Shown in pieces: positions 613-27,781 of a stretch of 32,000 nucleotides of DNA. Positions within the stretch are counted from its first letter, which is position 1; each line of letters opens with the position of its first letter. The notes under the pieces are model-generated. The model saw only the letters and a list, made by a program, of their open reading frames with translations. It had not been told where the DNA came from and did not search any database. This DNA comes from Aquifex aeolicus VF5 (GTDB lineage: Bacteria; Aquificota; Aquificia; Aquificales; Aquificaceae), in contig NC_001880.1 of assembly GCF_000008625.1 (NCBI RefSeq), positions 7,457 through 39,456 of the forward strand. Direction: 5' to 3'. The translations under genes and the position numbers were made by a program.

Positions 613-834
613 TTATTCGGAAAGTTTCTCCAAAAGATAATCCACAACTTCGGGTTTGAAGTAGTAGAGCCTTTTTCTTCCGCCCAATCTTTTGATGTGC
701 ATGTATTCTTGAGGTATAAAGCCTCTCAAAATCCAGTAGTATATGCCAGACCGTGTTATAGGAATTCCTTTCTTATTTAGTTCCTCTAAAAGTTCGCTCA
801 GGCTTATTAGCTTTTCTTCCGTCATCTGAACCAT
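613..834 (-). CDS. Small excisionase/MerR-like HTH DNA-binding protein, paralog A
   Basis: 73 aa. Shares motifs (RGFIP.E, YYFKPEVVD.L...LS) with the 72 aa ORF 21874..22092. Divergent from a palindrome array and a 318 aa gene, the same layout as the second module. Confidence 0.7.
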   Translation of the reverse strand: MVQMTEEKLISLSELLEELNKKGIPITRSGIYYWILRGFIPQEYMHIKRLGGRKRLYYFKPEVVDYLLEKLSE

Positions 835-887
835 ACTATTAATTTTTCTTCAGTTTTTTAGATTGTCAAAATTTTTGCGATTCAGTG

Positions 888-1265
888 GTTCCGCTAAATT
901 TTGGCGGAACTTACAAATTCCCTTGAAAAATAAAAACTTGACGAAAGCCTTTTCCTGTTCAGTTCTGCTAAAACTTAGCGGAACTATTATCAAGTTCCCC
1001 AAAATCAACGCCTTCATAAGTGGAAGATTTCGGTTCCGCTAAATATATATTGTTGTTGAAATTCCCTTAAAGTTTTGAATTTTTCTACAACAGATTTTCT
1101 TTTAGCGGAACTCACACGTACGCTTATAAGCTCTTTGAAAATCAAAGTCTTGAAATGGGTTATGCGTAGTTCCGCTAACTTTTAGCGGAACTTTAGTCTT
1201 TTACACTTTTCGGAGAAAATTGGAAATCAAGAGTTTGACGTTGTTCCGCTAATATTTGGCGGAAC
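888..1265. repeat. Palindrome (iteron/operator) array, family 1: GTTCCGCTAA-N3-TTAGCGGAAC
   Basis: 23-bp palindromes at 888-910, 962-984, 1169-1191 and 1243-1265. One split palindrome has half-sites at 1033-1043 and 1102-1111, 58 bp apart. Confidence 0.9.
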
Positions 1266-1328: not shown

Positions 1329-2285
1329 GTGAGGGAGGAAGTTGAAAGGAAAATAAAGGAAGTTCTCGGAGTAAAAGAGGAGACTTTAAAGTATGAGGGA
1401 GTTTTCAGACGAAGAAAGAGGAAGGGGGCAAAGGAATACGAATATCTGGAAGCAAAGTTCTATGACATTGAAGAGAAGAAAATTGTAAACGTCCACGTCC
1501 CTGTAAAGAAAGAAAATCTTGTTCTTGAGCTGGACAGGCATTGGAAAGAAAGCAAGAAAAGGGAAAAAGAACTTGAAAAAAGGTTGAAAGAAATAATATC
1601 CGAATACAAAAATCCGGACCTAATAAGAGAAATCCTTGAAAGACTCCTTGAGGAAGGCATTCGGCGAGAAGCAAAAGATTACGCTTATGAAAAATACAAA
1701 AAGGAAGCTCTTGAGCTTTTTGAGAGGTTCAAGCCCTATCTTATCAAGCTAAGAAGGGAAAGACTGAAAAGAATAAACCTTTTGCAAGCACTATACCTTC
1801 TTGCGAATGTAAAGGAAATGTTCCAGGAAAAGGAAGAAGAACTTGAAAAGGTCATGGAAAGAGCGGTAAAAACAATCCTCTTTAGAGACCAAAACCAGAA
1901 ACTTCAGAGTCCTTTGGGAGTCTTGAAAAATGACTTTTTCCTTCCAAAAGAAACTCCTTACGATTTTTTGCTTTCTCGTTTCCTTCAAGCGGAACTCGAA
2001 CCTGTGCTTGAAAAGCTTCTGAAAGCGGAAATAGAAAAAGAAGAGACACAAGAGGCTATGGGAGAAATTGCAGAGTTTCTGACAGAACTTTCTGAAGAAG
2101 CAAAAAGTAGGGTTCTCAAAGTATTTCCATCCTTTTCGCAGTTTTCTAAAGTTTTGTACCGTGAGTGGAAGAAATCCGGACAATCTCTCAAGGATTTTCT
2201 TGTAGATTGGAAAAGCTTTCTCGAGTTCAAAGGAAAAGAAGCTGAAAAGGAAGTTTTGAACGTATTGTCTAAATTGAATTTATAA
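1329..2285 (+). CDS. 318 aa charged, helical protein, paralog A; candidate replication or iteron-associated protein
   Basis: Same length as 22553..23509, with shared blocks LQALYLLANVKE / LQVLYLLANLKE and LKNDFFL...TPYDFLLS.FL. GTG start preceded by GAGAAGG. Function inferred from position next to the iterons only. Confidence 0.75.
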   Translation: MREEVERKIKEVLGVKEETLKYEGVFRRRKRKGAKEYEYLEAKFYDIEEKKIVNVHVPVKKENLVLELDRHWKESKKREKELEKRLKEIISEYKNPDLIREILERLLEEGIRREAKDYAYEKYKKEALELFERFKPYLIKLRRERLKRINLLQALYLLANVKEMFQEKEEELEKVMERAVKTILFRDQNQKLQSPLGVLKNDFFLPKETPYDFLLSRFLQAELEPVLEKLLKAEIEKEETQEAMGEIAEFLTELSEEAKSRVLKVFPSFSQFSKVLYREWKKSGQSLKDFLVDWKSFLEFKGKEAEKEVLNVLSKLNL

Positions 2286-2674
2286 GGTAAGTTATTTAAT
2301 TAACCTTACTTAGTTAACTAAGCTAATTTATTGCCGGTTAAGTAATTTTCGAAAATGTTCTGAAGCTTGTACTCAGAAATCAAATTCCCCTTCAAGTTTT
2401 CCCGGAAACTCCTTAGAGCCTACTATTTATCCAGAGACAGGTAAAGAACCTGACAGAGAAGGGAAAGAGGGTAGATTCTTGCTTTGAGCTTGAAAGCCCT
2501 GCTTTACTCCTTAATCACTAAACGGGAAATGGAAATACCTGATACCACGGTCAAATGATGTAAACTATTGTCAGCAAAGAAGAAAAGGTTGATTATTCAG
2601 AACTGGCTTCCGAGGCTTTCATTTTAAGGGAAAAGTTGAAAGTGATAAAGTAGTTGACAATAAAGGAGTTTGTC

Positions 2675-2980
2675 ATGATATAGCCGAGCAATATAAAAAC
2701 CGAGGAGGACGTAAAGGAAGCAATTAAGGAGATTTTCAAAGATAAGAAGGTTAAGGTTTACCTTTTTGGCTCGAGGGCAAGGGGTGAGAACACACCCAGA
2801 AGCGACCTTAATCTGGGCTTTCTGTCGGATGAGGATATAGGTTATGAGCTTTCTCTTTTGAGGGAAATACTTGAGGAGTCAAACCTTCCCTTCTCGGTTG
2901 ATGTTGTTGACTTATCAAAGGCGGGAAGGGAGTTCAGGGAAATGGTTTTAAAGGAGGGTAAACTTTGGATAAGTTTATAA
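2675..2980 (+). pseudogene. MNT-type minimal nucleotidyltransferase (toxin-antitoxin component) with in-frame TAG at codon 3
   Basis: AGGAG at 2664-2668, ATG 2675, ATA, TAG 2681-2683, then an open frame to TAA 2978-2980. Translation contains YLFGSRARGENTPRSDLNLG (GS...RG...SDxD-like motif with the second Asp replaced by Asn). Not in the ORF track because there is no Met after the TAG. Confidence 0.7.
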
Positions 2981-3018
2981 AGCAATTAGAAGACTTTGAG
3001 AAATCCGTAAGGGAGAAC
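2965..3018 (+). pseudogene. Remnant of the HEPN-type partner of the MNT gene, cut after about 17 codons
   Basis: TTG 2965 follows AGGAGGG and overlaps the MNT stop. (M)DKFIKQLEDFEKSVRE resembles the N-terminus of nucleotidyltransferase substrate-binding / HEPN proteins. Similarity stops where the IS-terminus sequence begins at about 3017. Confidence 0.3.
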
Positions 3019-3076
3019 GCCAAGTTAAGGATTAGAGGAGTGTAGTGATCTAACGAGAATAAAAGAAGCAAGATGA
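3017..3076 (+). mobile_element. IS terminus copy 1 (GCCAAGTTAAGGATTAGAGGAG...GAGAATAAAAG)
   Basis: About 60 nt alignable by eye with 12246-12320 and 12594-12672, which contain the 3' end of a DDE transposase gene. Confidence 0.65.
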
Positions 3077-3140
3077 GATTTGTTGCATTTTGGCCAAGTT
3101 GGCAATTTTGCAACGAATTTGCGAGGTTAAAATCATTTTT

Positions 3141-3437: not shown

Positions 3438-3499
3438 AAGTCTATTTTAAATCCCTTGATTTTCGAGGAAAATCTTAATGGAAGTTTACCCCTAAACTT

Positions 3500-3625
3500 G
3501 GAAAGCTTGAAATACAAGCATTTCCCGAAGAAAGAGGTCTCAAAACTTATTACTACCTGAAACCGCAAGTTGTGGACTACCTTGTAGAAAAGCTTTCCAA
3601 TACTATCAACCGCCTGTATATTTAG
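3500..3625 (+). pseudogene. 3' fragment of a third copy of the excisionase-like HTH gene
   Basis: Translation ...AFPEERGLKTYYYLKPQVVDYLVEKLSNTINRLYI* matches the C-terminus of 613..834 (YYFKPEVVDYLLEKLSE). No N-terminal part or start codon. Confidence 0.6.
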
Positions 3626-4357: not shown

Positions 4358-5404
4358 ATGAGAAGGGAAATACTTTCAAGAACTCTCCTTCTTTCAAGCC
4401 TATTTGTAGCCGGAGGGTTTCTGACTGCCTGCGGAGGCGGCGGTGGAGGAACAGGAGGAGGAGAGCAGGGTAAGATCACAAACGAGCTACAGGCTAAAGC
4501 CGCTTTAGGTAATTCATTAAGTGCAATACGAAGCAGTGCAGGGTTAACCGAAGATACTCAAACAGGAGTAGGAGCTGCATCTGTAGGGAATAAGGGAGGT
4601 TGGCTTAGGGACGCCTTGAAGCTCTACAAGTCCGCTGCTCCTCAAACGGGAACGCTTGCCTCTCAGCAACAGTATACGTGTGATAACGGAGGTACTGCAA
4701 CCATAGATTACTCTTACGATTCAAATACCAGAACCGCCAGTGCAACTATTACTTTTGATAATTGTGGAAACACTTGCAGTCTAAACAAGTATGTCATATT
4801 CAACGGAACTATGCGTTTCTCCGGGAAAGATATCAATCAAAACTATATCTTGGAAAGCGGCAGCATATCTGTAGATTCCGGATTCTCTTATACCGACCAG
4901 TGTGAGAATGAGGGTGTTTACTTCGAGGGCAACTTCTCAATATCTGTGAAGGGGTATATCCCAAATACTGGGGATATTGAAGACGGAAATAATAACTATA
5001 AAGCCGACCTGACACTCGATGGAGGACCCGTTAAGGTTACAGATGGTTCAAAGTGGGAAAGGGGCTCTTTCGATAACTTGACTTTCTATATTAACGAATA
5101 TTATCCCGCAAGCGCTGATTACGAGTGGAAAGTCAACGGGGGTTTCAGGTATCAAGACAGTTACTGCGTAACAGATCCAGTATACCTCAGCTTCAACACA
5201 ACAAACATCTTCAAGGGCTACAACACGGTTGAGTGTGAATACACAGGAAGACTCTCCGTTAATAACGACCTTATAGTTGCAGAATCCTACGATCCCGATA
5301 GTAAGCCTTCCGAAACGGAAAACTACCTTAAAATCCTCTTTAACGGAAATGTGGTATTCGACAACCTCTGTACCAACTTCAATCCTCCGGATACGTGCAG
5401 CTGA
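4358..5404 (+). CDS. Secreted lipoprotein, Gly-rich linker then Asn/Thr/Tyr/Cys-rich domain
   Basis: Signal peptide plus lipobox (LLLSSLFVAGGFLTAC) followed by GGGGGGTGGGE. GGAGG before the ATG. Confidence 0.8.
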   Translation: MRREILSRTLLLSSLFVAGGFLTACGGGGGGTGGGEQGKITNELQAKAALGNSLSAIRSSAGLTEDTQTGVGAASVGNKGGWLRDALKLYKSAAPQTGTLASQQQYTCDNGGTATIDYSYDSNTRTASATITFDNCGNTCSLNKYVIFNGTMRFSGKDINQNYILESGSISVDSGFSYTDQCENEGVYFEGNFSISVKGYIPNTGDIEDGNNNYKADLTLDGGPVKVTDGSKWERGSFDNLTFYINEYYPASADYEWKVNGGFRYQDSYCVTDPVYLSFNTTNIFKGYNTVECEYTGRLSVNNDLIVAESYDPDSKPSETENYLKILFNGNVVFDNLCTNFNPPDTCS

Positions 5405-6540: not shown

Positions 6541-6574
6541 TCTTTGATTTTCAATAAGTTATTAACCTATTTTA

Positions 6575-9018: not shown

Positions 9019-9975
9019 TTACTCCCTCTTAAATTTGTTGTTTCTTTTCAGGATAAATTTAAACCTTTTGCTTATGGACACGCGTGAAACTTTGGAACCT
9101 TTATGATGCCACTCTATTATTCCCATTTCTTCCAGTTTATTTAAATGAGCGTAGAAAGTTCTCTTCTTAAGACCTGAGAGATTCAGCAACTCGTCCGTCT
9201 TCATTCCGTACTCTCTGTCCTTCAAATGTTTAAGGATTGGTTCAAACTTGTGTAAAATTTCTTCATACTTTGCTTTCTCATTAATATACCAAGTAATTGC
9301 TCCATTTTTGTTTATGTAATAGTATATTTTTTCAAAAGGATAAGCAAAATTATGCTTTTCTATTGTCAATACCCGAAAGCTTTTCCCTTCTGTGTAGGCC
9401 TGCATAAAGGGAGTTGTTAAAAACTTAATTGTAGATACGCCCTGATACCTGTCCGTTTTATTTTTTCCTGAACTTTTAATCGTGTGATGAATAAACATTA
9501 TGTGACTTTCAGAATTTCTTGCTAACTTTCTTGTTTTTTTAATAAATTCCTTAACTTCTACAGGATCATAAATAGACTTTCCTTCATAAAAGGCAACAAA
9601 ACTATCAACCACAACAAAATCGTAGCGTTTTTGTTCCAGTATCTTTTCAAAACTCCTGTAATCCGAAATGTCGTCCAGATCCATTATTTCCATTTCTGAA
9701 GTGCTTATTCTGTATCTTTTTCTTATTGGTTCTAACTTTTCTAAGATATCTTCCTTATAAAGTTCCAGAGATATATAGGCTACTTTCTTCGGTTCCTTAA
9801 CTTTGAGTAAATTGTGAAATAAGTTCTTACCTGCACCTGCCAGTAGACACAAGTAAAGGCTTATGGTAGTTTTCCCTACACCTGAATCACCGTAAAGTAT
9901 GGAAACGTATCCCTTCCTGAAAAACTCGTCAAAATTTTGCGCACTGTTGCTCCTTTTGTATTCACTTAACCTCAT
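9019..9975 (-). CDS. RecA-superfamily (RepA/KaiC/AAA_25-like) ATPase with C-terminal winged HTH; candidate plasmid replicative helicase or loader
   Basis: Walker [10 protein letters not shown] and Walker [10 protein letters not shown]-terminal [21 protein letters not shown] looks like a wHTH. Confidence 0.65.
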
Positions 9976-16790: not shown

Positions 16791-17339
16791 TCAGCGTTTA
16801 CTTATTCTTATAACGGAAAACAGAGAGGTGAAAATATTTCTCTTTTCACTTACCCCTATAGTTTTTAAAAACTCCTCTTTTAGAATGAGATAACTGTCCT
16901 GTAAAAATCCATTATCAAATTCTTCAAGCGGTGTGAGATAACCCGCATCTTTTATCTGGACTTTATAACAAGGGACAAGTTTCTTTTGATCCTGTTTGTG
17001 ATAATAACGGACCTCTTCAAATTTTTCGGGAGAGGTAAGGTAGAGTTTCTTCCATCCTTTGAGCATAGCCCTTTCAAAGTTCCCGTAATAATTTTCGGGA
17101 ACGGGAATTCCCTCGTTAAGTAGAAAGTCTCTTGAAAAGTAAAGAGGATCTTCTTCTTTTAACTCAATCTTTTCAGGATTAACACATTTTAAAAACTTCA
17201 GAAAGAGAGAATTGTTTGCTTTTCCTAAAAGTTTATTTACGCTCTTTTTTGAAGAAATCTGAACCTCAAAAGGCAAGAAACACGCTCTCCTGAAAATCTG
17301 CCTTTCTCCCGTAAGATCAAAAAGATTACTGGTTAACAT
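16791..17339 (-). CDS. Hypothetical protein, last intact gene of the nuclease/ATPase island
   Basis: ORF 16791..17372. The ATG at 17339 follows AGAGGAG and leaves a 14-nt overlap with the ATPase gene. Confidence 0.5.
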   Translation of the reverse strand: MLTSNLFDLTGERQIFRRACFLPFEVQISSKKSVNKLLGKANNSLFLKFLKCVNPEKIELKEEDPLYFSRDFLLNEGIPVPENYYGNFERAMLKGWKKLYLTSPEKFEEVRYYHKQDQKKLVPCYKVQIKDAGYLTPLEEFDNGFLQDSYLILKEEFLKTIGVSEKRNIFTSLFSVIRISKR

Positions 17340-18105
17340 AGCTCCTCTTTTTACTCCCGAGTCTCCACTCAATTCCTTTAGCTTTTAGCTTTGAACCAAG
17401 TGCTCTTTTATCCCTGAGATGTTCTGGTGGAACTTCGTCAATAAGAACAGGCATTCTGTTATCTATGTAAAGAATTGCCTCAAAAGTATTTGCCTTGCTG
17501 TTTCTGGTTTCCTTTAATTTTCCGTAGTAAATTTTTTCTGTCCCCAGAAGTTTTGCTATGAAATTAAGAAGCGTAGTTTTTCCGGCCTTAGGAGTACCTA
17601 TTAAAAGGGAAAATACGGGAAATTTATTTATATCCTTCATTAACTCAGTTGCTTTTTCCCTGACTTCCTTGAGAAATACAGAATAAAAAGAAAATATAAT
17701 AGCCTCTCCGGTTAAAAATCTGTGTTCCTCACTCGTTTCTGTGGAAAGTTCTATATAATCCTTTATCGCAATTACAGTTTTCTTTACAGATTCCTCGGGA
17801 ATAGAAATCTCAACAACGGATTTTCCATTATAAAAAATTTCTCCATCGCAAACCGCTACGTTTACTTTTTCATCTTTATCTTCCCTTTTATTCTTCAAGA
17901 TTTCCTGAATCTTTTGAGGAGATATTAGTATTTCCTTCTTCTTTTCCGCAAGCTTCTGAAACATTTCTGCGCTTTCTTCAACCGCTTTTTTTCTGACAAG
18001 AGACTTCTGAGCTTCGTTAAAAATGGGACTGTTAATCACTTTAGTATAGTAGTAATTGAGAACAACATTTTTTACTTTTTCGTTTTTCTCAAATTCCTTT
18101 ATCAC
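17326..18105 (-). CDS. P-loop NTPase (possibly SF3-helicase-like)
   Basis: Walker A LLIGTPKAGKTTLLNFI and Walker B-like MPVLIDEV. GTG start; the frame stays open upstream to 18333. Confidence 0.6.
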   Translation of the reverse strand: MIKEFEKNEKVKNVVLNYYYTKVINSPIFNEAQKSLVRKKAVEESAEMFQKLAEKKKEILISPQKIQEILKNKREDKDEKVNVAVCDGEIFYNGKSVVEISIPEESVKKTVIAIKDYIELSTETSEEHRFLTGEAIIFSFYSVFLKEVREKATELMKDINKFPVFSLLIGTPKAGKTTLLNFIAKLLGTEKIYYGKLKETRNSKANTFEAILYIDNRMPVLIDEVPPEHLRDKRALGSKLKAKGIEWRLGSKKRSYVNQ

Positions 18106-18284: not shown

Positions 18285-18740
18285 TTACAAAAAAAACTCT
18301 TCCTGAGGTCCCCTCCAGGCTAAAGAGGATAAATTACCACTCCCTGCTACGACAATTTTCCTTTCTTCGGATTCAAGTATGTATAACTTTGTATGACAGT
18401 TTGGAATGTAGTAAACGGAGAAATCTTTAAACATGGCTTGTTTACTTATTTCTTCTCCTTCTTTGAGGAACTTTTCCACTATAACTTCCAGGTTATAAAG
18501 TTCCCTTCCTTGTTCTTCTAACCCTATCAGGATTTCCACTTCCCTGTAATCCTTTAAAAGATCAAGGATACTCTTCAGAGAGGAGAAAGTTATAGCTTTT
18601 ATCCTGTTGAATTGCCTAAGGTATTTCCCTGGAATATCGTACAGGAGTTTAATTTCCTCTTCGCCTATACTAAGAATAGGCTTTTTAGTATCTTTTTCAG
18701 GTTCCTCTGAAAAAAGTTGTTTGTTCATTATACCTCCCAA
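18285..18740 (-). CDS. PLD-superfamily (HKD motif) nuclease domain protein
   Basis: C-terminal CHTKLYILESEERKIVVAGSGNLS matches HxK(x)4[D/E](x)6GSxN, with Glu at the Asp position. Confidence 0.6.
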   Translation of the reverse strand: MGGIMNKQLFSEEPEKDTKKPILSIGEEEIKLLYDIPGKYLRQFNRIKAITFSSLKSILDLLKDYREVEILIGLEEQGRELYNLEVIVEKFLKEGEEISKQAMFKDFSVYYIPNCHTKLYILESEERKIVVAGSGNLSSLAWRGPQEEFFL

Positions 18741-18878
18741 ACTACTTAAAATTTCGCATCAGATAGTGCCTATTTCAAGCTAAGTCCTATCTTTTACTAA
18801 ACTTACTTTTCTAACTTATATAAGTTATATTACTTATAAAACTAAACTTTATTTAAAGAATAAAATTCATTAGCACCC

Positions 18879-19649
18879 TTATACGACTTCTACCAGTAAA
18901 GGAAAAGGTACGCCGGTTCCGCTCACAATACCTTTACCGGTAGGTAGTTTCGGAAGAATGTTCGCTATATCACTTCCAGCAAATTCTACAAAAGTGGAAA
19001 CTGTATCAATGTCAGATGCATTTATAGTTCTAAACATAACCTGAGTGTTTAATTGAGAAAGGATATATTTGCTAACCTGTGCTGGTCTTTGCGTTATTAC
19101 CATAAGTCCTAAATTGAATTTCCTTCCCTCGGATGCTATCTTTCTGGCAAAAGTGAGAGAAAGGTTTTCTTTTCCTGCGGAGACATCCCCGAATCCCTTT
19201 TCTGGAGCAAAATTGTGCGCCTCTTCCAGAACTAAAAATCTTTTGGAAGGTTGTTTCTTATTCCTTGTAAAAAGCTCTTCCATTATCAGTCCTGCTATGT
19301 TTATTCTCGTTTGTGGATGCGTAATATTCCGGAAGTTAAAAATAATTACTCTCTTTTCACTTTCTAGTCCAGAATTTATTGCATCAAATACAGTTGTTTG
19401 GTTAGATAAACTATTTTCACCGTAAGTTTCTTTAAGGTAAGTGGTTATTTCTTGTATTTCCTTAGAACCCGCATTTAAACTTTCTATCAAATTAACAAGT
19501 GTTTTCTTAGATAAAGAAGTAAGTCTAAGAGAGGGTTTTATGTTCTGTGAAAGTTTTGATCTATTTTCCCTGGCCTGGTGTGAATTACCGCTTACCAGTG
19601 AAGGGTATCCTGCTTCTTTTATAAGTTCTTCCACTTCCTCTGGAAACAC
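18879..19649 (-). CDS. herA: HerA/FtsK-superfamily ATPase, C-terminal half (Walker B, arginine finger region)
   Basis: FLVLEEAHNFAP...EGRKFNLGLMVITQRPAQVSKYILSQLNTQVMFR is a typical HerA/DUF87 C-terminal core. In frame with 19686..20498 across one TAG. Confidence 0.75.
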   Translation of the reverse strand: MFPEEVEELIKEAGYPSLVSGNSHQARENRSKLSQNIKPSLRLTSLSKKTLVNLIESLNAGSKEIQEITTYLKETYGENSLSNQTTVFDAINSGLESEKRVIIFNFRNITHPQTRINIAGLIMEELFTRNKKQPSKRFLVLEEAHNFAPEKGFGDVSAGKENLSLTFARKIASEGRKFNLGLMVITQRPAQVSKYILSQLNTQVMFRTINASDIDTVSTFVEFAGSDIANILPKLPTGKGIVSGTGVPFPLLVEVV

Positions 19650-19685
19650 AGGGAAAATTGTATCTTCAAGTTCGATATGTTCTAT

Positions 19686-20498
19686 CTAGTTTTCATCTAT
19701 ATAACTCTTTAAATCGTTGAAGTATTCTCCGTGAGGATCAAGTACATAAACTTCAACTTCTTTATCGGATTCAAGTAAACTGGAAATAAACCTTTTTGTA
19801 AAATAGCTTTTTCCTGAACCGGTAGTACCTAGTACGAGCATGTGTTTACTTATCACCTCGTTTGCATCTACAAACACATCTATGTCAGAATTCTCAATCA
19901 CGCCAACTTTTACAGGAACTTCCATATCTCTCCCGGAAAAATTCTTCTTGAGTATTTTCCCCAGTGTTTTTTCTGATATTTTATAAACAGGTTCTCCTAC
20001 ATGGAAGGGATTTCTTAATATATCTAATTTTCCATCCTTTAGTATACCTATTACGTCCGCGGTTGCTATTTTCAGTTTATTTCCATTATTGTTGAGGTAA
20101 GCGTAAATAGCCGCCTTTTTCCATTCGTCATCTTTTCCTTTAGAAAAAATGGTTTTAAAGTCCTCTACGGGAGCAAAAACACTGGATTCCTGTGAAGTGA
20201 AGGGATTCGCAAAAAATCCCATATCGTAAGCAAAAATACTTGTTATCTTTCCGAGCACAATACCTTCCTGTAATTTCACTTCAACGTAAGAATGTAAACC
20301 TATATCATCATTGCCTACCAGAATAAACTCAAAGGATTGAGGTTTTACAGGATTTACAGTAAATCCTAAAAGATCATCTCCAAAACTTTCGGAATACTCT
20401 TCCTTAATTTTTTCAAAGTATTCACGTAGTTTTTTAATATGTTCATCACTGCCGTCCGATTCGTAATAAACTCCCGCTTCTATATTGCCCGTTGACAT
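19686..20498 (-). CDS. herA: HerA/FtsK-superfamily ATPase, N-terminal half (HAS-barrel region plus Walker A)
   Basis: HMLVLGTTGSGKSYFTKRFI...VYVLDPHGEY. Ends at TAG 19686-19688, which is in frame with the downstream half. Confidence 0.75.
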   Translation of the reverse strand: MSTGNIEAGVYYESDGSDEHIKKLREYFEKIKEEYSESFGDDLLGFTVNPVKPQSFEFILVGNDDIGLHSYVEVKLQEGIVLGKITSIFAYDMGFFANPFTSQESSVFAPVEDFKTIFSKGKDDEWKKAAIYAYLNNNGNKLKIATADVIGILKDGKLDILRNPFHVGEPVYKISEKTLGKILKKNFSGRDMEVPVKVGVIENSDIDVFVDANEVISKHMLVLGTTGSGKSYFTKRFISSLLESDKEVEVYVLDPHGEYFNDLKSYIDEN

Positions 20499-20499
20499 A

Positions 20500-20835
20500 T
20501 CAGATAATCCTGCATCCGGTAAAGTTCGCCGAACCTACGACTGCCCTTTTATTATCAACGATTATGAATTTTGCATGTAGCCTGTTACACAGGTAAATTT
20601 TTCCATTTATATCTTTAATATTTCTAAATACTCTGTCATTAGTTATGAGAAAATCCCTAAGTTCTGATGCTCTCAATATTATTTCAGGAGAAATATTTTT
20701 ACTCTTTGCTATATTCAGGATTTCTTCAAATATACTCCCTTTTATCCATGCGGATGCGATTTTTATGCTTTCCTTAGCTTCTTTTGTTATTTCTAAGATT
20801 TTCTTATATATTTCCTAGCTCGTCAGGATTTCCAT
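20500..20835 (-). pseudogene. Small Nuc-like PLD-family nuclease with in-frame TAG at codon 7
   Basis: GGAGGG, then ATG at 20835, MEILTS, TAG 20815-20817, then EIYKKILEITKEAKESIKIASAWI...NRLHAKFIIVDNKRAVVGSANFTGCRII. This is a perfect HxK(x)4D(x)6GSxN motif. The stop lies 1 nt before the herA ATG. Absent from the ORF track. Confidence 0.7.
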
Positions 20836-21873: not shown

Positions 21874-22092
21874 TTAGACGGAGAGCTCCTGAACAAGAAA
21901 ATCTACCACTTCCGGTTTGAAGTAGTAGTAATTAACAAGTCCTCTTCTCTTTATCCTTACCAATTCACCGGGAATGAAGCCTCTCTTTACATAACGGATT
22001 AAAGTTCTATCGCTTATCTCTATACCTCTTTCTTTAAGTTCTCTTAGAACCTGCGTACTCGTAAGATATCCCTGAATTCTTATTGCCGGCAT
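21874..22092 (-). CDS. Small excisionase/MerR-like HTH DNA-binding protein, paralog B
   Basis: 72 aa. RGFIPGELVRIKRRGLVNYYYFKPEVVDFLVQELS parallels 613..834. Confidence 0.7.
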   Translation of the reverse strand: MPAIRIQGYLTSTQVLRELKERGIEISDRTLIRYVKRGFIPGELVRIKRRGLVNYYYFKPEVVDFLVQELSV

Positions 22093-22149
22093 TTACATTA
22101 AGATAATAAGCTCTAAAGCCTTCCTTTTCAAGGAAAAAATAGAATTAGA

Positions 22150-22493
22150 GTTCTCCTATATATAGGAGAACTACTTTGAGCTCGCTAAAAATCAAGTCTC
22201 AGACACACCACTTGAACTCCGGAAGTTCTCCTAGCTATAGGAGAACCGCTACTTAACTTATTGATTTTCAAGCACTTTCTGTTTAGTTCTCCTAGAAACA
22301 TTTATATCTTTTTCCATATACAAAAGCTTTTTGTTATTGGAGAAGTAATAAGTTATATAGGAGAACTCTCCTTTCAAGTTTTTGATTTTCAATATAGTTC
22401 TCCTATATATAGGAGAACTTTTGTGATTTTTTCTATTCTGTAATGCCCGATTTTTAGTTTGGTCATAAGTGGTTCTCCTAGAACTAGGAGAAC
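22150..22493. repeat. Palindrome (iteron/operator) array, family 2: GTTCTCCTA-N4-TAGGAGAAC
   Basis: 22-bp palindromes at 22150-22171, 22225-22246, 22397-22418 and 22472-22493. A split palindrome has half-sites at 22286-22295 and 22358-22366. Confidence 0.9.
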
Positions 22494-22552
22494 CGACAAA
22501 GCAAAAAAATAGATAAAATCGAGGAATGCGACACTAAAATAGTTTTTAGGAC

Positions 22553-23509
22553 ATGCTTGAAGTTGAAAAAAAGATAAAACAAAAGCTGGGGATAGATGAA
22601 ACAGAGGTCCTGAGCTCCCTAACGAGCTACCGGAAAAAAGGCAAAACCTACTATAAAATTGTAACATACGATTCAAAAACGAAACAATCTAGGAGATACC
22701 ATGTGCCCAGAATGTTCGAAGAGGAGATTTTAGCTCTCTGGAAGCAGCGGCAGAAGTACATTGAAGAAGAAAGGGAACTTGAAAGGGAAGTAAAAAGCCT
22801 CTTAAAAAAATACGGGGATGCAGAAAAGATAAAGGAAATTCTGGAAAAAGTAGCAGGAGAAAGTTTTGATAAAGCTGTTTCCTCTTACGCAATTAAGACT
22901 TACACGAATAAGGCAAAGGAACTCTTTAAGAGTTTTAAAGAAGACCTTATAAAGCTTTACAGGGAGGGAGTTTTAAAAAGGCTTTCAGTTTTGCAGGTCC
23001 TTTACCTTCTTGCAAATTTGAAGGAGATTTCCGAAGATACGGAAAGAGGAAGTTACTTTTTCAAGAAAGGACTGAACACGATAATAAAAGTAGCAAAAAA
23101 CGAACGTATCCCAAATCCTTTCGGAACACTTAAAAACGACTTTTTCCTTTCGGGAAAGCAGACCCCTTATGACTTTCTCCTTTCGAATTTTCTTGAAGAG
23201 CTTATAGGAGAAACTCTAGGAGAACTCCTTGAAAAGGAAATTGAGAAATTAGTAGCGGAAGAAAAAGCAAAAGAAATCGAGGGAAAAGTAAAGAAGTTAA
23301 AGGAAATTGTTTCATGGTTTGAAACCCTTCCCTACGAAATAAAACAGATTGCAAAAGAAGTAATTTCTGACAATGTTCTGGATATTGCAGAAAAGTTCTA
23401 CAAGGATATGAAAGAATGCAATTACTCTCTTGATGAAGCAAAAGCATTTTTAACAAGTTCTCCTAGAGATAACCTGGTGAATTACATGCAATACCTTAAG
23501 TCTATATGA
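22553..23509 (+). CDS. 318 aa charged, helical protein, paralog B; candidate replication or iteron-associated protein
   Basis: Same length and shared motifs with 1329..2285. Confidence 0.75.
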   Translation: MLEVEKKIKQKLGIDETEVLSSLTSYRKKGKTYYKIVTYDSKTKQSRRYHVPRMFEEEILALWKQRQKYIEEERELEREVKSLLKKYGDAEKIKEILEKVAGESFDKAVSSYAIKTYTNKAKELFKSFKEDLIKLYREGVLKRLSVLQVLYLLANLKEISEDTERGSYFFKKGLNTIIKVAKNERIPNPFGTLKNDFFLSGKQTPYDFLLSNFLEELIGETLGELLEKEIEKLVAEEKAKEIEGKVKKLKEIVSWFETLPYEIKQIAKEVISDNVLDIAEKFYKDMKECNYSLDEAKAFLTSSPRDNLVNYMQYLKSI

Positions 23510-23514
23510 AAGTC

Positions 23515-23718
23515 TTACGCATTCTCTGAGAGTATTTCCGTTATAAGATCCTTCAACGTTTTCCCTTCCTTTAATGCCCTCATTTTAAGAGAAAACCACA
23601 CATCATAAGGAAGCTCTATCAGAAGTTTCTTAACCTGTGGTTTTTCTTCCCCTTCTTTTATCTTTGCAGAAGCTATAAATTCCTCGGGTTTTTTTGAAGG
23701 TTTCTTCGGTATAGCCAT
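23515..23718 (-). CDS. Small RHH centromere-binding partition protein (ParG-like)
   Basis: 67 aa directly downstream of parA. KKLLIELPYDVWFSLKMRALKEGKTLKDLITEIL fits an RHH with a basic flexible N-terminus. Confidence 0.6.
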   Translation of the reverse strand: MAIPKKPSKKPEEFIASAKIKEGEEKPQVKKLLIELPYDVWFSLKMRALKEGKTLKDLITEILSENA

Positions 23719-23748: not shown

Positions 23749-24390
23749 TTAAGCAATATTAATTATATTACTAATTTCATTTATTAAGCTTTCAAGCTCC
23801 TCTATTGCTTTTTTATCGTTCATTTCAAGCACTCCCTTTCCTTCTTTTACAGAGTTTCTGTAAACTACTCTTGAGTGCAATCTTGAATTTAATACTCCTA
23901 CGGAGTACTGCTGTGCTAATTCTCTCAGGGTTTCCTCAGCTTCTTTCACGATGTTAGACTTTATTACTTGATTAAACAGTATATAAGCCGGGATATCTGC
24001 AAAGGTCCTTGCTTCTTGCAGAACCTTCAGGGTATCTTCTGTTGCCCATACATCGTAAACACTTGGGAGAACAGGTATTATCAAAGCTCCGTTTGATGCT
24101 GCAAGAATCGCGCTTCTGAAAACTGCACTATCTCTTCCCCCTACGTCGATAACTACAACATCAAAATTTTCAAAACCCTTAATGTCTTTGTGAATTGTGG
24201 GCTTTGTAATACCTATTGCTTTAATGTCGTCTTTTTCCCTGAGTGCCCTGAAGTTCAAACTACTTTCCTGGATATCCGCATCAATAAGTAGAACACTTTT
24301 TCCTCTGAGAGAATATCCTACGGCTAAATTACACGCAACAGTACTTTTCCCTACTCCTCCCTTCTGATTACCTACCACGATTACTTTCAT
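23749..24390 (-). CDS. parA: ParA/Soj-family partition ATPase (type Ib size)
   Basis: Deviant Walker A MKVIVVGNQKGGVGKST, then VLLIDADIQ; 213 aa. Confidence 0.9.
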   Translation of the reverse strand: MKVIVVGNQKGGVGKSTVACNLAVGYSLRGKSVLLIDADIQESSLNFRALREKDDIKAIGITKPTIHKDIKGFENFDVVVIDVGGRDSAVFRSAILAASNGALIIPVLPSVYDVWATEDTLKVLQEARTFADIPAYILFNQVIKSNIVKEAEETLRELAQQYSVGVLNSRLHSRVVYRNSVKEGKGVLEMNDKKAIEELESLINEISNIINIA

Positions 24391-24399
24391 AATGTTATT

Positions 24400-24575
24400 T
24401 ATTTTAGCAATATTTATTAGATAAGTTAGCTAACTAAAACTGATTTCAATATTTGATTATATAGATATGCCGCTTTCTATCTTTGCTTATCTAACTTATG
24501 TTGTTTAACTAATAATGATAACTTTTATTACAAAGTTTACTAACCTTAGTTAGTTACTAAAAAGCTTGAAACATT
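24400..24575. promoter_or_regulatory. Putative par promoter/centromere region with TAACTAA / ATAAGTTAG repeats
   Basis: Immediately upstream of parA. Contains AGATAAGTTAGCTAACTAA, CTTATCTAACTTATG and CCTTAGTTAGTTACTAA. Its core (24470-24560) is repeated in inverted orientation at 8854-8943. Confidence 0.55.
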
Positions 24576-24907
24576 ATGGTAAATACTTTATCAATAAAAC
24601 ATATGTTTATGAGAATATTTAAAAAGAAGATAATCAAAACGCTTTTAGGCCATATTTTAGTAAGGAGAAAGAAGAGGAAAAACCTTACGGATTTGGTAGG
24701 GGCTATTAAAGGAGGAGATAGCTTTAACGCAGTTGAGGATAAGCATAAATTATATCAAGTTTGCTAGACAAATAGCTTTAGTGGTAACGGTTGTAGGCTT
24801 TGCGTGGTGGTACATGAGAACGATTCTAAAAAATTTTTGTTAAGTTTTTTTAGAAACTCAATAATATCTTTTTCTTCTCCCGCAGAAACTTCAAAACTTT
24901 TTAGAGG

Positions 24908-25096
24908 GTTCTCATACTTATTATGTTGTCATTGAATGTGTATAAAGATTTAGGGTTTACATTAGTACCTATATTAATGTATGAGAGCTTTATTAGAAAG
25001 CCTTGAAAACAGGTAAGGTTCTCATACCTATGGGAAAACTCTAAAAAATGTGAAATTCTTGAAAATCAAAATGGTTCTCATACTTATATGAGAATC
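24908..25096. repeat. Palindrome array, family 3: GTTCTCATA-N4-TATGAGAAC (partly degenerate)
   Basis: Best copy 25074-25096 (GTTCTCATACTTATATGAGAATC). Weaker copies at 24908-24930 and 25018-25039. A right half-site TATGAGAGC at 24979-24987. Confidence 0.7.
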
Positions 25097-25753: not shown

Positions 25754-26194
25754 ATGGCTTTTCATATCCTACCTACTTTTGAGAGAGGAAATGAGAAAGG
25801 AGCTGTTATAGGGCGTGTAAAACACAGAAGGGAAAATCCATTAGAATACGAAATAAAGGTAGTAAAAAAAGGAAGTGTAAAAGTTTTTGTAGGAAATAAG
25901 GGAGTATTTGTTATAGAGGACGATTTAGCAAAAGAGATTATAAAAGCGTTATGGGAAAAATACGTCAGGGAAACCTACGGAAGAAGGAAGCCAAAAACGA
26001 ATAAGGAAATAGTAGAACATCCGATAGAAGTGAGAGAAAGTTTTCTTATAAATTTCTTTAAAGAGAAAGGTTTTATCACTTCATTTAAGTCCTGTATGTA
26101 TCTTATAGAAGGAACCAGTTCAGATGAATCAACTATTAAAGACTTAATACTTTTAACGAAAAAGATTAAAGAAAAGGTAACGAAAACAACATGA
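25754..26194 (+). CDS. Hypothetical protein
   Basis: 146 aa ORF with GAGGAGG before the ATG. Divergent from the PIN gene. Confidence 0.5.
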   Translation: MAFHILPTFERGNEKGAVIGRVKHRRENPLEYEIKVVKKGSVKVFVGNKGVFVIEDDLAKEIIKALWEKYVRETYGRRKPKTNKEIVEHPIEVRESFLINFFKEKGFITSFKSCMYLIEGTSSDESTIKDLILLTKKIKEKVTKTT

Positions 26195-26435: not shown

Positions 26436-27398
26436 ATGACGTATCAAAACGGTGTTGAAGTTTTACTTGAGGAATTTCTTGATTATCTAACAAAGGAAGA
26501 AACCATATGCTCGCTGGAAATAGAAAAGTTAAAAGTTTCTATAGACGAACTTGAGAAAGAAACTGATGAGCCGAGAGTACTTCAAGGGATAAACTATTTC
26601 AGAACCGCAAAAGAAGTTTACCAACTTTCACGGAAAGCATATGAAACAAAAGAGGAAGTGGTCTCTGAAGCTTTAATACTATGGATTTATGAAAACCTAT
26701 GGAAAGGATTTAATGTTCCCAAGGGATATAGAAAAAGTGATATGGTTATTTTCGGTGCAAAATTTAGTCCTCCACCACCATATGTTGTTCCGAACCTTAT
26801 AAGAACAATAGTAAACTGGCTAAGGAATGAGAAAACAATAGATGTAGTTAAGAAATCTATTATTTTCCACACGCTATTTGAAGTTATACATCCGTTTCCT
26901 GACGGCAACGGAAGAGTGGGAAGAATACTTTTGAATGCAATCCTCGTAGAAAACGGACTCTTAAATGTTGCTTTTAGAAATAGAGAGAAATATATCTCCG
27001 CCTTGAGAGAAGCTGAAGAGGGAGCTATAGTAGTTGTTGAAAAACTATCAAGAGGAAGAAAAATAGATTATTCATCTATTACAGAAACTGTAGAGTATTA
27101 CGGAAACTTAAATGTTTTTGATGAACTAATAAGAACCGAGATGATGCACAGCTTGAAGGTATACTCAAATATAAAGCAAGTTTTCTTAACTCCAGAGGAG
27201 GCAGCAAAACTTTTAGGTTTAAAGAATAAGGATTACGTAAGAGTTCTAATCCACAGAGGAAAACTAAAAGCAGTTAAGGAAGAAGGTAAGTGGAAGATAC
27301 CTCTTTCTGAAGTTGTAAAGAACTTTGAACACAAACTGAAAGGAGAAGAATTCAAACTTGCCAATAATTTGTTCAAAGGTAAACTTAGTCCTTCTTAA
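26436..27398 (+). CDS. Fic-domain protein with C-terminal excisionase-type HTH
   Basis: Fic motif HPFPDGNGRVGR. C-terminal LTPEEAAKLLGLKNKDYVRVLIHRGKLKAVKEEGKWKIPLSEVV resembles HTH_17/excisionase domains. Confidence 0.85.
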   Translation: MTYQNGVEVLLEEFLDYLTKEETICSLEIEKLKVSIDELEKETDEPRVLQGINYFRTAKEVYQLSRKAYETKEEVVSEALILWIYENLWKGFNVPKGYRKSDMVIFGAKFSPPPPYVVPNLIRTIVNWLRNEKTIDVVKKSIIFHTLFEVIHPFPDGNGRVGRILLNAILVENGLLNVAFRNREKYISALREAEEGAIVVVEKLSRGRKIDYSSITETVEYYGNLNVFDELIRTEMMHSLKVYSNIKQVFLTPEEAAKLLGLKNKDYVRVLIHRGKLKAVKEEGKWKIPLSEVVKNFEHKLKGEEFKLANNLFKGKLSPS

Positions 27399-27438: not shown

Positions 27439-27490
27439 GTCCTATATATAGGACAACTTTTCTACAGAGTTCTCATATCGGTATGAGAAC
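27439..27490. repeat. Two palindromes: GTCCTATATATAGGAC and a perfect family-3 site GTTCTCATATCGGTATGAGAAC
   Basis: 27439-27454 and 27469-27490, read directly from the sequence. Confidence 0.85.
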
Positions 27491-27781
27491 TTTTGCGTTG
27501 TGAACCATGGTTTACAACCTCAGGCAAGTCTTAACTGAGCTAAATTTAACCAAACTAAATTAATATACTTATGGAATATATACACGAAAGTATAAGAGAA
27601 TTCTGTTGTAAAAAGGGAGTGGGGTGTTCTAATTCTATCATTAATTCTGTCTCTTCTTGCAACATATGTGTAAACATTTTTCAAGGTAAGAAAGAAGAAG
27701 GTTTAACTTGAATTCCAAAAGCTCTTCAACTTTTTATTTTGCATCAGACATAGGAAAAAATCCTCCAAAACTCGGACCAAG

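Follow-up and report, generated by a model that had tools for sequence, protein, structure and literature searches.

How can one plasmid carry several related copies of a site-bearing cassette side by side, and what is that cassette for? The question is raised by a 32,000-nucleotide stretch of the Aquifex aeolicus VF5 plasmid ece1 (contig NC_001880.1, positions 7,457 to 39,456), hereafter the window, to whose first letter all coordinates refer. The plasmid bears several copies of an uncharacterised cassette that joins a gene for a small DNA-binding protein, an array of palindromes of ~350 bp, and a gene for a 318-residue protein, and each copy has its own palindrome sequence. At least three intact modules are present on ece1, together with relics: module 1 (613-2285), module 2 (21874-23509), and module 0, the aq_aa07 module that lies before the window start. 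Literature searches returned nothing on ece1 maintenance, Aquificota plasmid replication, or the 318-amino-acid (318-aa) protein family, and the maintenance of ece1 appears never to have been studied. The existence, conservation, and specificity diversification of this system are well supported; as to its function, which we infer, we read the module as a self-contained plasmid-maintenance cassette, most probably a replicon. We give a probability of roughly 0.5 to the fuller reading that it is a novel replicon cassette with private specificity, gained by fusion or recombination and not duplicated in place.

Modules 1 and 2 are true paralogs with non-overlapping site families. Their small helix-turn-helix (HTH) proteins are 44% identical (E=9e-17) and their 318-aa proteins are 40% identical over 250 aa (E=1e-41), in keeping with the paralogy claimed in a preliminary description of this DNA; the open reading frames (ORFs) also confirm the conserved order and sizes of the genes that it reported (72 and 73 aa for the HTH proteins, 318 aa for both large proteins). 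The parts of the two modules are as follows.

21874..22092, minus strand: small winged-HTH protein of module 2, 72 aa (ORF; HTH_17 score only 14.5 bits)
22103..22131, minus strand: promoter-like site of the module 2 HTH gene, TTGAAA-17-TATTAT (promoter scan)
22150..22171: module 2 palindrome P1, GTTCTCCTATATATAGGAGAAC (0 mismatches)
22225..22246: module 2 palindrome P2, GTTCTCCTAGCTATAGGAGAAC (0 mismatches)
22261..22271, minus strand: module 2 invariant box TTGAAAATCAA (motif TTGA-N3-TCAA)
22286..22294, plus strand: module 2 left half-site GTTCTCCTA (motif match)
22295..22357: module 2 spacer of 63 bp between inverted half-sites, AT-richer (78% AT vs 67% for the whole intergenic region), a candidate unwinding region
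22358..22366, minus strand: module 2 right half-site TAGGAGAAC (motif match)
22382..22392, minus strand: second module 2 invariant box TTGAAAATCAA (motif match)
22397..22418: module 2 palindrome P3 (0 mismatches)
22472..22493: module 2 palindrome P4 (0 mismatches)
22535..22540, plus strand: TAAAAT, putative -10 element of the module 2 318-aa gene (read from the flanks; the promoter scan made no call)
22553..23509, plus strand: module 2 318-aa protein, candidate initiator (ORF)
613..834, minus strand: small winged-HTH protein of module 1, 73 aa (ORF and alignment to the module 2 copy)
888..1265: module 1 array, with palindromes at 888-910, 962-984, 1169-1191, and 1243-1265
Within 888..1265: module 1 half-sites at 1033-1041 and 1103-1111 and boxes at 1135-1145 and 1220-1230 (motif matches)
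1329..2285, plus strand: module 1 318-aa protein (ORF and alignment to the module 2 copy)

Motif scans recovered four palindromes of the form GTTCTCCTA-N4-TAGGAGAAC in module 2 (0 mismatches each; 0 expected from dinucleotide shuffles) and four of the form GTTCCGCTAA-N3-TTAGCGGAAC in module 1 (0-1 mismatch; 0 expected by chance). From palindrome to palindrome the module 2 array measures 75/75 bp and the module 1 array 74/74 bp, and a single plan is common to both arrays: two palindromes, a half-site, ~60 bp of AT-richer DNA, a second half-site, and two further palindromes. Site number, spacing, the split central site, and the N4 and N3 gaps are thus as first described. The same description held that only a core triplet distinguishes the two site families. 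The sites do differ in the core, but the change there is confined to positions 5-6 (TC in module 2, CG in module 1), position 7 being C in both half-site consensi (GTTCTCCTA[T/G] in module 2, GTTCCGC[T/C]AA in module 1), and the inner bases differ slightly, as does the length of the whole site (22 bp in module 2, 23 bp in module 1). The module 1 HTH gene has a promoter-like site, TTGACA-16-AAAAAT at 869..842, of the same geometry as that of module 2; in each module 18 bp separate the -35 of the HTH gene from the start of P1 upstream of it, and in both the palindromes lie upstream of the promoter-like hexamers with no overlap. Perfect module-2 half-sites also occur inside the 318-aa gene of module 2 itself, at 23217-23225 (minus strand, codon 222) and 23457-23465 (plus strand, codon 302), and a module-1 half-site with one mismatch lies at 1987-1995, at the equivalent codon 220 of the module 1 gene; ten other family members that were checked have no intragenic half-site near codon ~220, where only modules 1 and 2 carry one.

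Does this arrangement extend beyond ece1? A profile search of 1.84 billion representative proteins for the 318-aa family returned 27 clusters only, many of them fragments, and 185,579 species-representative genomes yielded two small contigs only. PLSDB, searched with both DNA and protein, gave no match, ece1-like plasmids being missing from it; the protein-profile scan of JGI metagenomes and the scan of IMG/VR viral contigs found no relatives, and JGI metagenomes scanned with the module-2 palindrome gave 15 contigs with one palindrome each and no array, which we judged unrelated. A word-index search for HTH homologues returned only the query itself, and an Rfam scan of the whole window found no RNA family. 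Further modules, labelled L003 to L021, were taken from metagenomic contigs and contigs of metagenome-assembled genomes. With those of ece1 they make 14 modules of a common array layout; distances were measured in 13 loci, and the 14th, L021, was read by eye and has the same order.

Across the 13 loci, array order and distances from the start codon of the 318-aa gene are nearly constant in spite of unconserved sequence. Counted from that codon, the first two palindromes fall at -403 to -443 (P1) and -328 to -369 (P2), the half-sites at -267 to -303 (left) and -195 to -226 (right) with a spacer of 59-75 bp between them, and the last two palindromes at about -153 to -166 (P3) and at -73 to -93 (P4). 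P4 stands 59-90 bp ahead of the start codon in every one of the 13, and the repeats are phased at 66-75 bp. The layout is indifferent to the orientation of the HTH gene, which is divergent in modules 1 and 2, L003, L004, L017, L019, L020, and L021 and co-directional in module 0, L005, and L012. The central spacer is 71-81% AT, compared with 66-72% for the intergenic region (11 loci), a modest effect. The half-sites fall into about 10 variants; the outer TTC...GAA frame hardly changes among them, nor does the length of 22 bp.

GTTCCGCTAA: module 1, L021
TTTCCGCAAA: L015
GTTCTCCTA: module 2, L003, relic in L004
GTTCTCCCTA: module 0, L005, L020
GTTCTCCC: L011 (9-bp centre, unequal arms)
GTTCCCTA: L009
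GTTCTAC[G/T]C: L012
GTTCTACCC: L004, L019
TTCTCTAAG: L017
TTCTCACA: L014
GTTCTCATA: ece1 orphan array

The box TTGAAAATCAA (TTGA-N3-TCAA), in contrast, occupies gaps between palindromes in all arrays and is unchanged across specificities. The 13 arrays (5.97 kb) hold 8 exact copies vs 0.02 expected, and 19 vs 0.5 with one mismatch allowed. Such an invariant box is better matched to an invariant partner, either a host factor or the conserved C-domain of the 318-aa protein. A role as a -35 element was considered and rejected, the distance to the next palindrome being 4-24 bp with no consistent promoter. The window as a whole has 10 exact copies, and 16 within one mismatch vs 3.2 expected; exact copies outside the arrays stand at 6544, 13169, 13210, 14154, 31335, and 31376, and two pairs of extra-array boxes fall in duplicated VapBC-like segments at 13.2-13.9 kb and 30.7-31.3 kb. 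Short direct repeats specific to the site class lie between P4 and the start codon (window 22494-22540; flanks in L003, L017, L019, L020, and L001, the locus of module 0): CGACAA in module 2 and L003, TAAACA four times in L019, GGACAA four times in L017 with three more to the left of P1, and ATCTACTT three times in module 0 and L020. A TAAAAT/TAAATT sequence, conserved in most loci, follows them and is probably the -10 of the 318-aa gene.

The palindrome classes are tied to the proteins. Site class, HTH recognition helix, and the N-terminal sheet of the 318-aa protein are matched in module 2 and L003; in module 0, L005, and L020; in module 1 and L021; and in L004 and L019. Recognition helices such as SDRTLIRYVK, SRVTLYFWIK, TRSG[IV]YYWIL, and SKATLISWLK are common to loci with one site class. 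Because loci of the same site class share both helix and sheet, both variable proteins track the sites. The switch of specificity first proposed for modules 1 and 2 accordingly holds family-wide: core variants sought in relatives were found, about 10 half-site classes in 14 modules, each with matching protein classes. Of the two candidate readers of the palindromes, the HTH dimer is slightly favoured, and the N-terminal sheet of the 318-aa protein may be the reader with a distinctly smaller, though still appreciable, likelihood. The class-specific direct repeats are a candidate site for whichever variable protein does not read the palindromes.

Natural recombinants define the unit that carries specificity. 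When protein identity matrices were split at residue 118, some pairs proved to be 87-100% identical in their C-terminal parts and 21-35% identical in their N-terminal parts (L019 vs P0003; L011 vs P0002, L017, and L020; L015 vs L019), with a slightly weaker split between L009 and L012 (84% vs 31%). The DNA of L017 and L020 is ~40% identical through the array to nucleotide (nt) +146 and 81-100% identical thereafter; L011 switches at about nt +340-370 relative to L017 or L020, and L009 at about nt +390-450 relative to L012, while L015 and L019 are 100% identical from nt +685. These breakpoints are sharp. The HTH gene and the array are thus inherited together with the start of the 318-aa gene, at least as far as codon ~49, which covers the helix and sheet. 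The remainder of the 318-aa gene is interchangeable between specificities and up to 100% identical across them.

How, then, did the modules come to share a plasmid? The module 2 HTH protein is 73% identical to that of L003 compared with 44-48% to its ece1 co-residents, and the large protein of module 1 is 59% identical to the metagenomic P0019 compared with 36-40% to co-residents; the locus of P0019, L021, has the same GTTCCGCTAA sites as module 1. Since each ece1 module has a closer relative elsewhere than on ece1, the modules were brought together, not duplicated in place. Of the three origins offered at the outset (a duplicated replicon that escaped incompatibility, a fusion of related plasmids, or regulatory circuits with private operators), fusion or recombination of related plasmids fits better than in-place duplication, and private regulatory operators are weakened, since the array keeps its place relative to the 318-aa gene in either orientation of the HTH gene and the palindromes stand clear of the promoter-like hexamers.

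Further copies on ece1 complete this picture. Module 0 (locus L001, protein P0005) is an intact third module ~4.4 kb before the window start; its protein is 61% identical to that of module 2, its sites read GTTCTCCCTA-N2-TAGGGAGAAC, its array has the layout of modules 1 and 2, and its HTH gene points the same way as its large gene. Decayed or solitary copies within the window are the following.

24908..25095: orphan right half of a fourth array, specificity GTTCTCATA (motif scans; no 318-aa gene follows)
Within it: half-site 24908-24916, 63 bp, half-site 24980-24988, degenerate palindrome 25018-25039, box TTGAAAATCAA 25059-25069, palindrome 25074-25095
27469..27490: solo perfect palindrome GTTCTCATATCGGTATGAGAAC of the same class as the orphan array, preceded by GTCCTATATATAGGAC at 27445-27460
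3527..3601, plus strand: truncated HTH pseudogene, last 24 residues (tblastn E=8e-7; 62% identical to the module 2 HTH)

The 63-bp split of the orphan array is that of module 2, a remnant arm of the array persists near 24811, and a PIN-domain gene on the opposite strand fills the place where its 318-aa gene should begin. The DNA after the orphan P4 (25120-25147) resembles that after the solo palindrome (27494-27515), both reading GTT..AACC-N4-GGTTTACAAC, and the intervening 2.4-kb segment with the PIN, 146-aa, and Fic genes may be an insertion flanked by duplicated array ends. The 146-aa ORF (25754-26194) was considered as a decayed N-terminal domain of the 318-aa protein and rejected (hhalign probability 0.3%). 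A box-like TTGATTTTCGA at 3456-3466 lies near the HTH pseudogene, and a solo 24-bp palindrome, GTTCCCGTAATAATTTTCGGGAAC, at 17079-17102 inside ORF 16791-17372 has the GTTC...GAAC frame and belongs to yet another class. Tandem intact and relic modules are not peculiar to ece1, because a metagenome-assembled Aquifex contig (L004:601-1190) has an intact GTTCTACCC-class module directly preceded by a decayed module-2-class module, consisting of an array and a truncated 318-aa gene.

Single palindromes of different classes also cluster outside the arrays, just past the 3' end of the HTH gene. Module-0-type, L017-type, L009-like, and module-2-type sites stand in a row at L017:297-434; a homologous cluster at L011:1435-1535 is without the class of L011 itself; three classes lie between convergent genes at L003:1160-1293; and two adjacent sites lie between gene ends at window 27445-27490. 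The L017 and L011 clusters are upstream of a homologous gene for a small coiled-coil/transmembrane protein (PF27276, MJ0349-like). These mixed clusters suggest cross-talk among co-resident modules (titration, sensing, or hitch-hiking) or footprints of cassette exchange.

The two proteins differ greatly in how far they resemble known families. Within the HTH family 10 of 13 members match HTH_17 (PF12728; best E=2.5e-6) and 6 of 13 match MerR; the window copies score 14.5 and 14.8 bits against PF12728 (E=0.03-0.04), below the gathering cut-off of 27. An AlphaFold2 (AF2) model of the module 2 HTH protein, built from an alignment of the two window copies (predicted local distance difference test [pLDDT] 85.9), has the fold b-a1-a2-b-b-a3, with helices at 12-21, 28-36, and 61-71 and strands at 45-50 and 53-58: an HTH, a beta-hairpin wing, and a C-terminal helix. 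Its top Foldseek matches are all winged-helix DNA binders, though weak (E>=0.05), and it superposes best on BldC (template modelling scores 0.49/0.59; root mean square deviation 3.5 A). The family resembles the small HTH_17/MerR DNA binders (Xis, AlpA, and BldC) in the PF12728 match of those 10 members and in the predicted a1-a2-wing-a3 fold; unlike them, it is tied to an array and a 318-aa gene and exists in tandem-fused versions. In L009 and L011 the HTH partner is a single chain with two HTH domains (143 and 150 aa), which speaks for a pair as the functional unit, as the palindromes would lead one to expect. PADLOC gave one weak match, of the HTH protein to 'mad1', and no other defence-system match.

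The 318-aa protein, by contrast, has no relative in Pfam, NCBIfam, PHROG, PADLOC, PDB sequences or folds, or BFVD folds. The module 2 ORF is 100% identical to ece1 protein P0001, which was deposited as 265 aa (83% query coverage), and it aligns from residue 1 with all homologues. The 318-aa ORF is supported both by the alignment of the family and by the predicted structure, so that the public gene model appears to be 53 residues too short (22553-22711), omitting the specificity-linked N-terminal domain. The AF2 model (pLDDT 85.8) predicts a helix at 2-12, a basic three-stranded sheet at 18-50, long helices of 35-38 residues at 53-127, and a helical C-domain. That domain carries the almost invariant motifs FGTLKNDFF and TPYDFLLS, the invariant polar residues Q148, N155, K194, N195, and D196, and the nearly invariant Y206/D207 of the TPYDF motif. 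Foldseek of the model against PDB and BFVD gave E>=0.02 only, a hidden Markov model search of PDB sequences gave E>=0.028 only, and no nucleoside triphosphatase (NTPase), HUH, or recombinase signature was found. Eight isolated N-terminal segments had no match in Pfam, which leaves the idea that the sheet is an integrase arm-binding or AP2-like domain unsupported.

The plasmid surroundings of module 2 bear on what the cassette might do. As first described, module 2 abuts a parA gene and its ribbon-helix-helix (RHH) partner: both genes do adjoin it, the ParA assignment firm, the RHH match weak and below threshold.

23515..23718, minus strand: RHH-like 67-aa gene, ParA partner (MatP_C E=6.6e-4; 20.4 bits vs curated cut-off 24: weak)
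23749..24390, minus strand: ParA-type partition ATPase, 213 aa (CbiA/AAA_31/MipZ/ParA, E 1e-10 to 1e-16)

ParA (23749-24390), convergent to the 318-aa gene, has the RHH gene as its own partner; ParA and RHH genes occur also in L005-L007, where the order 318-aa, RHH(-), ParA(-) recurs, and ParA occurs in L009. Repeats of the TTAGCTAACTAA / TTAGTTAGTTA type at 24400-24560, upstream of parA, are likely the centromere of the parA locus; a similar repeat, TTAGTTAACTAAG, lies at 2310-2325, just past the module 1 318-aa gene. A ParE-type toxin-antitoxin and an integrase adjoin module 0 and L011. Cumulative AT skew is lowest at 22479 and cumulative GC skew at 24545; the latter peaks at 5149, about half the circle away, and the pattern fits an origin at module 2.

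We favour the replicon reading because private sites precede the protein gene, flank an AT-richer stretch bounded by inverted half-sites, and adjoin a partition locus; the co-resident copies of differing specificity, with the decayed copies, give ece1 the likeness of a multi-replicon cointegrate. In the mechanism that we propose, the ~350-bp array would be the cis site, probably an origin, with overall dyad symmetry: ~60 bp of AT-richer DNA in the middle, preceded by P1, box, P2, box, and a half-site and followed by a half-site, box, P3, box, and P4. The variable proteins of the module, the dimeric winged-HTH and/or the basic N-terminal beta-sheet domain (residues 1-50), would read the palindromes, and the two inverted half-sites would delimit the stretch that opens. 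A specificity-independent effector role would fall to the conserved ~200 residues at the C-terminal end of the 318-aa protein, perhaps through recruitment of host or plasmid replication machinery or through binding of the TTGAAAATCAA box. With differing half-site cores, co-resident modules would not compete for each other's proteins, and this could let three modules coexist on one plasmid and, presumably, related plasmids in one cell. DNA binding by either protein, origin function, and escape from incompatibility are all parts that we infer from sequence.

Several observations weigh against this replicon reading. The sites are palindromes and not direct iterons, and the 318-aa protein has no homology or fold likeness to an initiator, helicase, primase, or nuclease. 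The central spacer is AT-richer to a modest degree only, and the least stable 30-mer of the intergenic region coincides with it in no more than ~3 of 11 loci. The skew signal is confounded by a long block of minus-strand genes at 12-22 kb. DnaA boxes (TTATCCACA, at most 1 mismatch, a consensus assumed for A. aeolicus) number 12 vs 7.3 expected, with none in the module 1 and 2 arrays and one in the orphan-array spacer (24937-24945). Other candidate replication genes are present: an AAA_25/DnaB_C-like ATPase with a C-terminal winged HTH (9019-9975, minus strand) and a DUF927-like P-loop protein (17326-18105, minus strand). Terminal overlaps, sought among 20 loci, revealed no circular mini-contigs, and the tandem HTH of L009 is diverged and yet its sites are symmetric, so that the argument from fusion is not clean.

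The alternative that survives best, though we think it improbable, is that the modules are autoregulated transcription units in which the winged-HTH protein is a repressor or activator, the palindromes are operators for promoters at the array ends, the 318-aa protein has an unrelated function, and private half-sites insulate the circuits. The HTH_17/MerR superfamily is rich in regulators, the 18-bp distance of P1 from the -35 is a typical upstream-activator position, and the class-specific direct repeats overlap the putative 318-aa promoter. Six sites over 350 bp, a split site, and an invariant box are, however, far beyond the needs of an operator; the layout keeps to the 318-aa gene and ignores the direction of the HTH gene; the first ~49 codons are always co-inherited with the array, which nothing in a pure HTH-operator model calls for; and orphan arrays and solo sites persist without genes.

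Less probable still is a segregation or pairing device in which the palindromes form a centromere-like array bound by the winged-HTH protein, and the coiled-coil 318-aa protein is a ParA adaptor or DNA bridger. TubR, AspA, and SopB bind their centromeres, and the first two are among the weak Foldseek matches of the HTH model; the phasing of the repeats, the long helices of the 318-aa model, and the direct contact of module 2 and L005-L007 with parA would suit such a role. Every one of those Foldseek matches has E>0.05, however, and the ParA already has its own RHH partner and repeats; a single ParA would have to serve three modules, and module 0, module 1, L011, L012, L017, and L021 have no adjacent NTPase. 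Very improbable is a recombination cassette in which the 318-aa protein would act on the palindromes as a site-specific recombinase or resolvase-like enzyme of a novel kind, with mosaics and solo sites as its footprints: sharp breakpoints, solo or mixed palindromes at cassette edges, and the invariant polar C-domain residues with Y206/D207 speak for it, but the protein has no likeness to tyrosine or serine recombinases or to HUH or DDE enzymes, the breakpoints lie inside the gene (codons ~49 to ~228) and not at palindromes, and module 0 already adjoins a conventional integrase.

If the modules are replicons, which known origins do they resemble? Among iteron theta replicons multi-replicon cointegrates are common, as in IncF plasmids, and specificity differences set compatibility. 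The ece1 modules are like such replicons (pSC101, F/RepE, R6K/pi, and P1/RepA) in having a protein gene with its own repeated sites, a modestly AT-richer stretch, and a par locus. They are unlike them in that their sites are 22-23-bp palindromes in a dyad-symmetric arrangement of 2+half / half+2, not 17-22-bp direct repeats in one orientation; the 318-aa protein lacks the winged-helix Rep_3/RepA fold and any homology to it, the module arrays lack DnaA boxes, and a second, small HTH protein always accompanies the array. Lambdoid O proteins bind four dyad sites; their N-terminal part recognises DNA and is specific to the type, and their C-terminal part, which recruits the helicase loader, can be interchanged, as lambda, phi80, and P22 hybrids attest. 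The 318-aa family likewise has a variable N-terminal part, a conserved C-terminal part, and natural recombinants. Closely spaced sites inside the O gene make up ori-lambda, whereas the ece1 array is upstream of its gene, spaces its sites at 66-75 bp, and splits the central one. In neither sequence nor fold is the 318-aa protein related to Phage_rep_O, and IMG/VR viral contigs yielded no member of its family. Inverted half-sites across an AT-rich stretch with flanking palindromes recall the archaeal origin recognition box (ORB)/Orc1, simian virus 40 (SV40) site II, and papillomavirus E1/E2 origins. The papillomavirus specificity factor E2, small, dimeric, and bound to palindromes, helps to load the initiator E1, a possible analogy for the HTH protein and the 318-aa protein; the Orc1, SV40, and E1 initiators, however, are AAA+ or superfamily 3 ATPases, whereas the 318-aa protein has no NTPase motif and its host is bacterial.

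Some features of the plasmid touch none of these subjects directly. A HerA-like ATPase (HAS-barrel, DUF87, AAA_10) at 18285-20818 occupies two ORFs and is flanked by PLD-like nuclease fragments, as if the frame of a HerA/PLD-nuclease locus had been disrupted. In L021 the gene after the module-1-type 318-aa gene is of Fic + HTH_17 type (2142-3095), a gene of homologous type lies on ece1 at 26436-27398, and the ORF at 14-523 has a homologue in L004 (3256-3627); both may belong to a common plasmid backbone.

The general logic of a site-specific plasmid protein with repeated private sites, and of compatibility through divergence, is already known. Outside that known logic stand the fold of the protein, the split-site design of the palindromic array, the obligatory partnership with an HTH protein, the exchange of specificity as a cassette, and the clusters of mixed sites. 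Taken to its fullest extent, the evidence might describe a new replicon family of hyperthermophilic bacteria, with a dyad-symmetric palindromic-'iteron' origin, an exchangeable specificity cassette that combines the HTH gene and the array with the first ~50 codons of an initiator of novel fold, and foreign-class palindrome clusters that titrate, sense, or hitch-hike on the proteins of competitors, a synthesis that we put forward tentatively and consider rather unlikely to hold in every part. Whatever its function, the family is a compact natural experiment in protein-DNA recognition, in which the GTTC...GAAC frame stays constant, about ten variants of the half-site each go with a recognition helix and a beta-sheet domain to match, and clean natural domain swaps exist. 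The escape of related replicons from incompatibility would thereby become testable in vitro with short oligonucleotides and two small proteins. If the cassette is a replicon, it would bring a new initiator fold and an unusual origin design to light and would provide the first candidate parts for genetic tools in the Aquificales.

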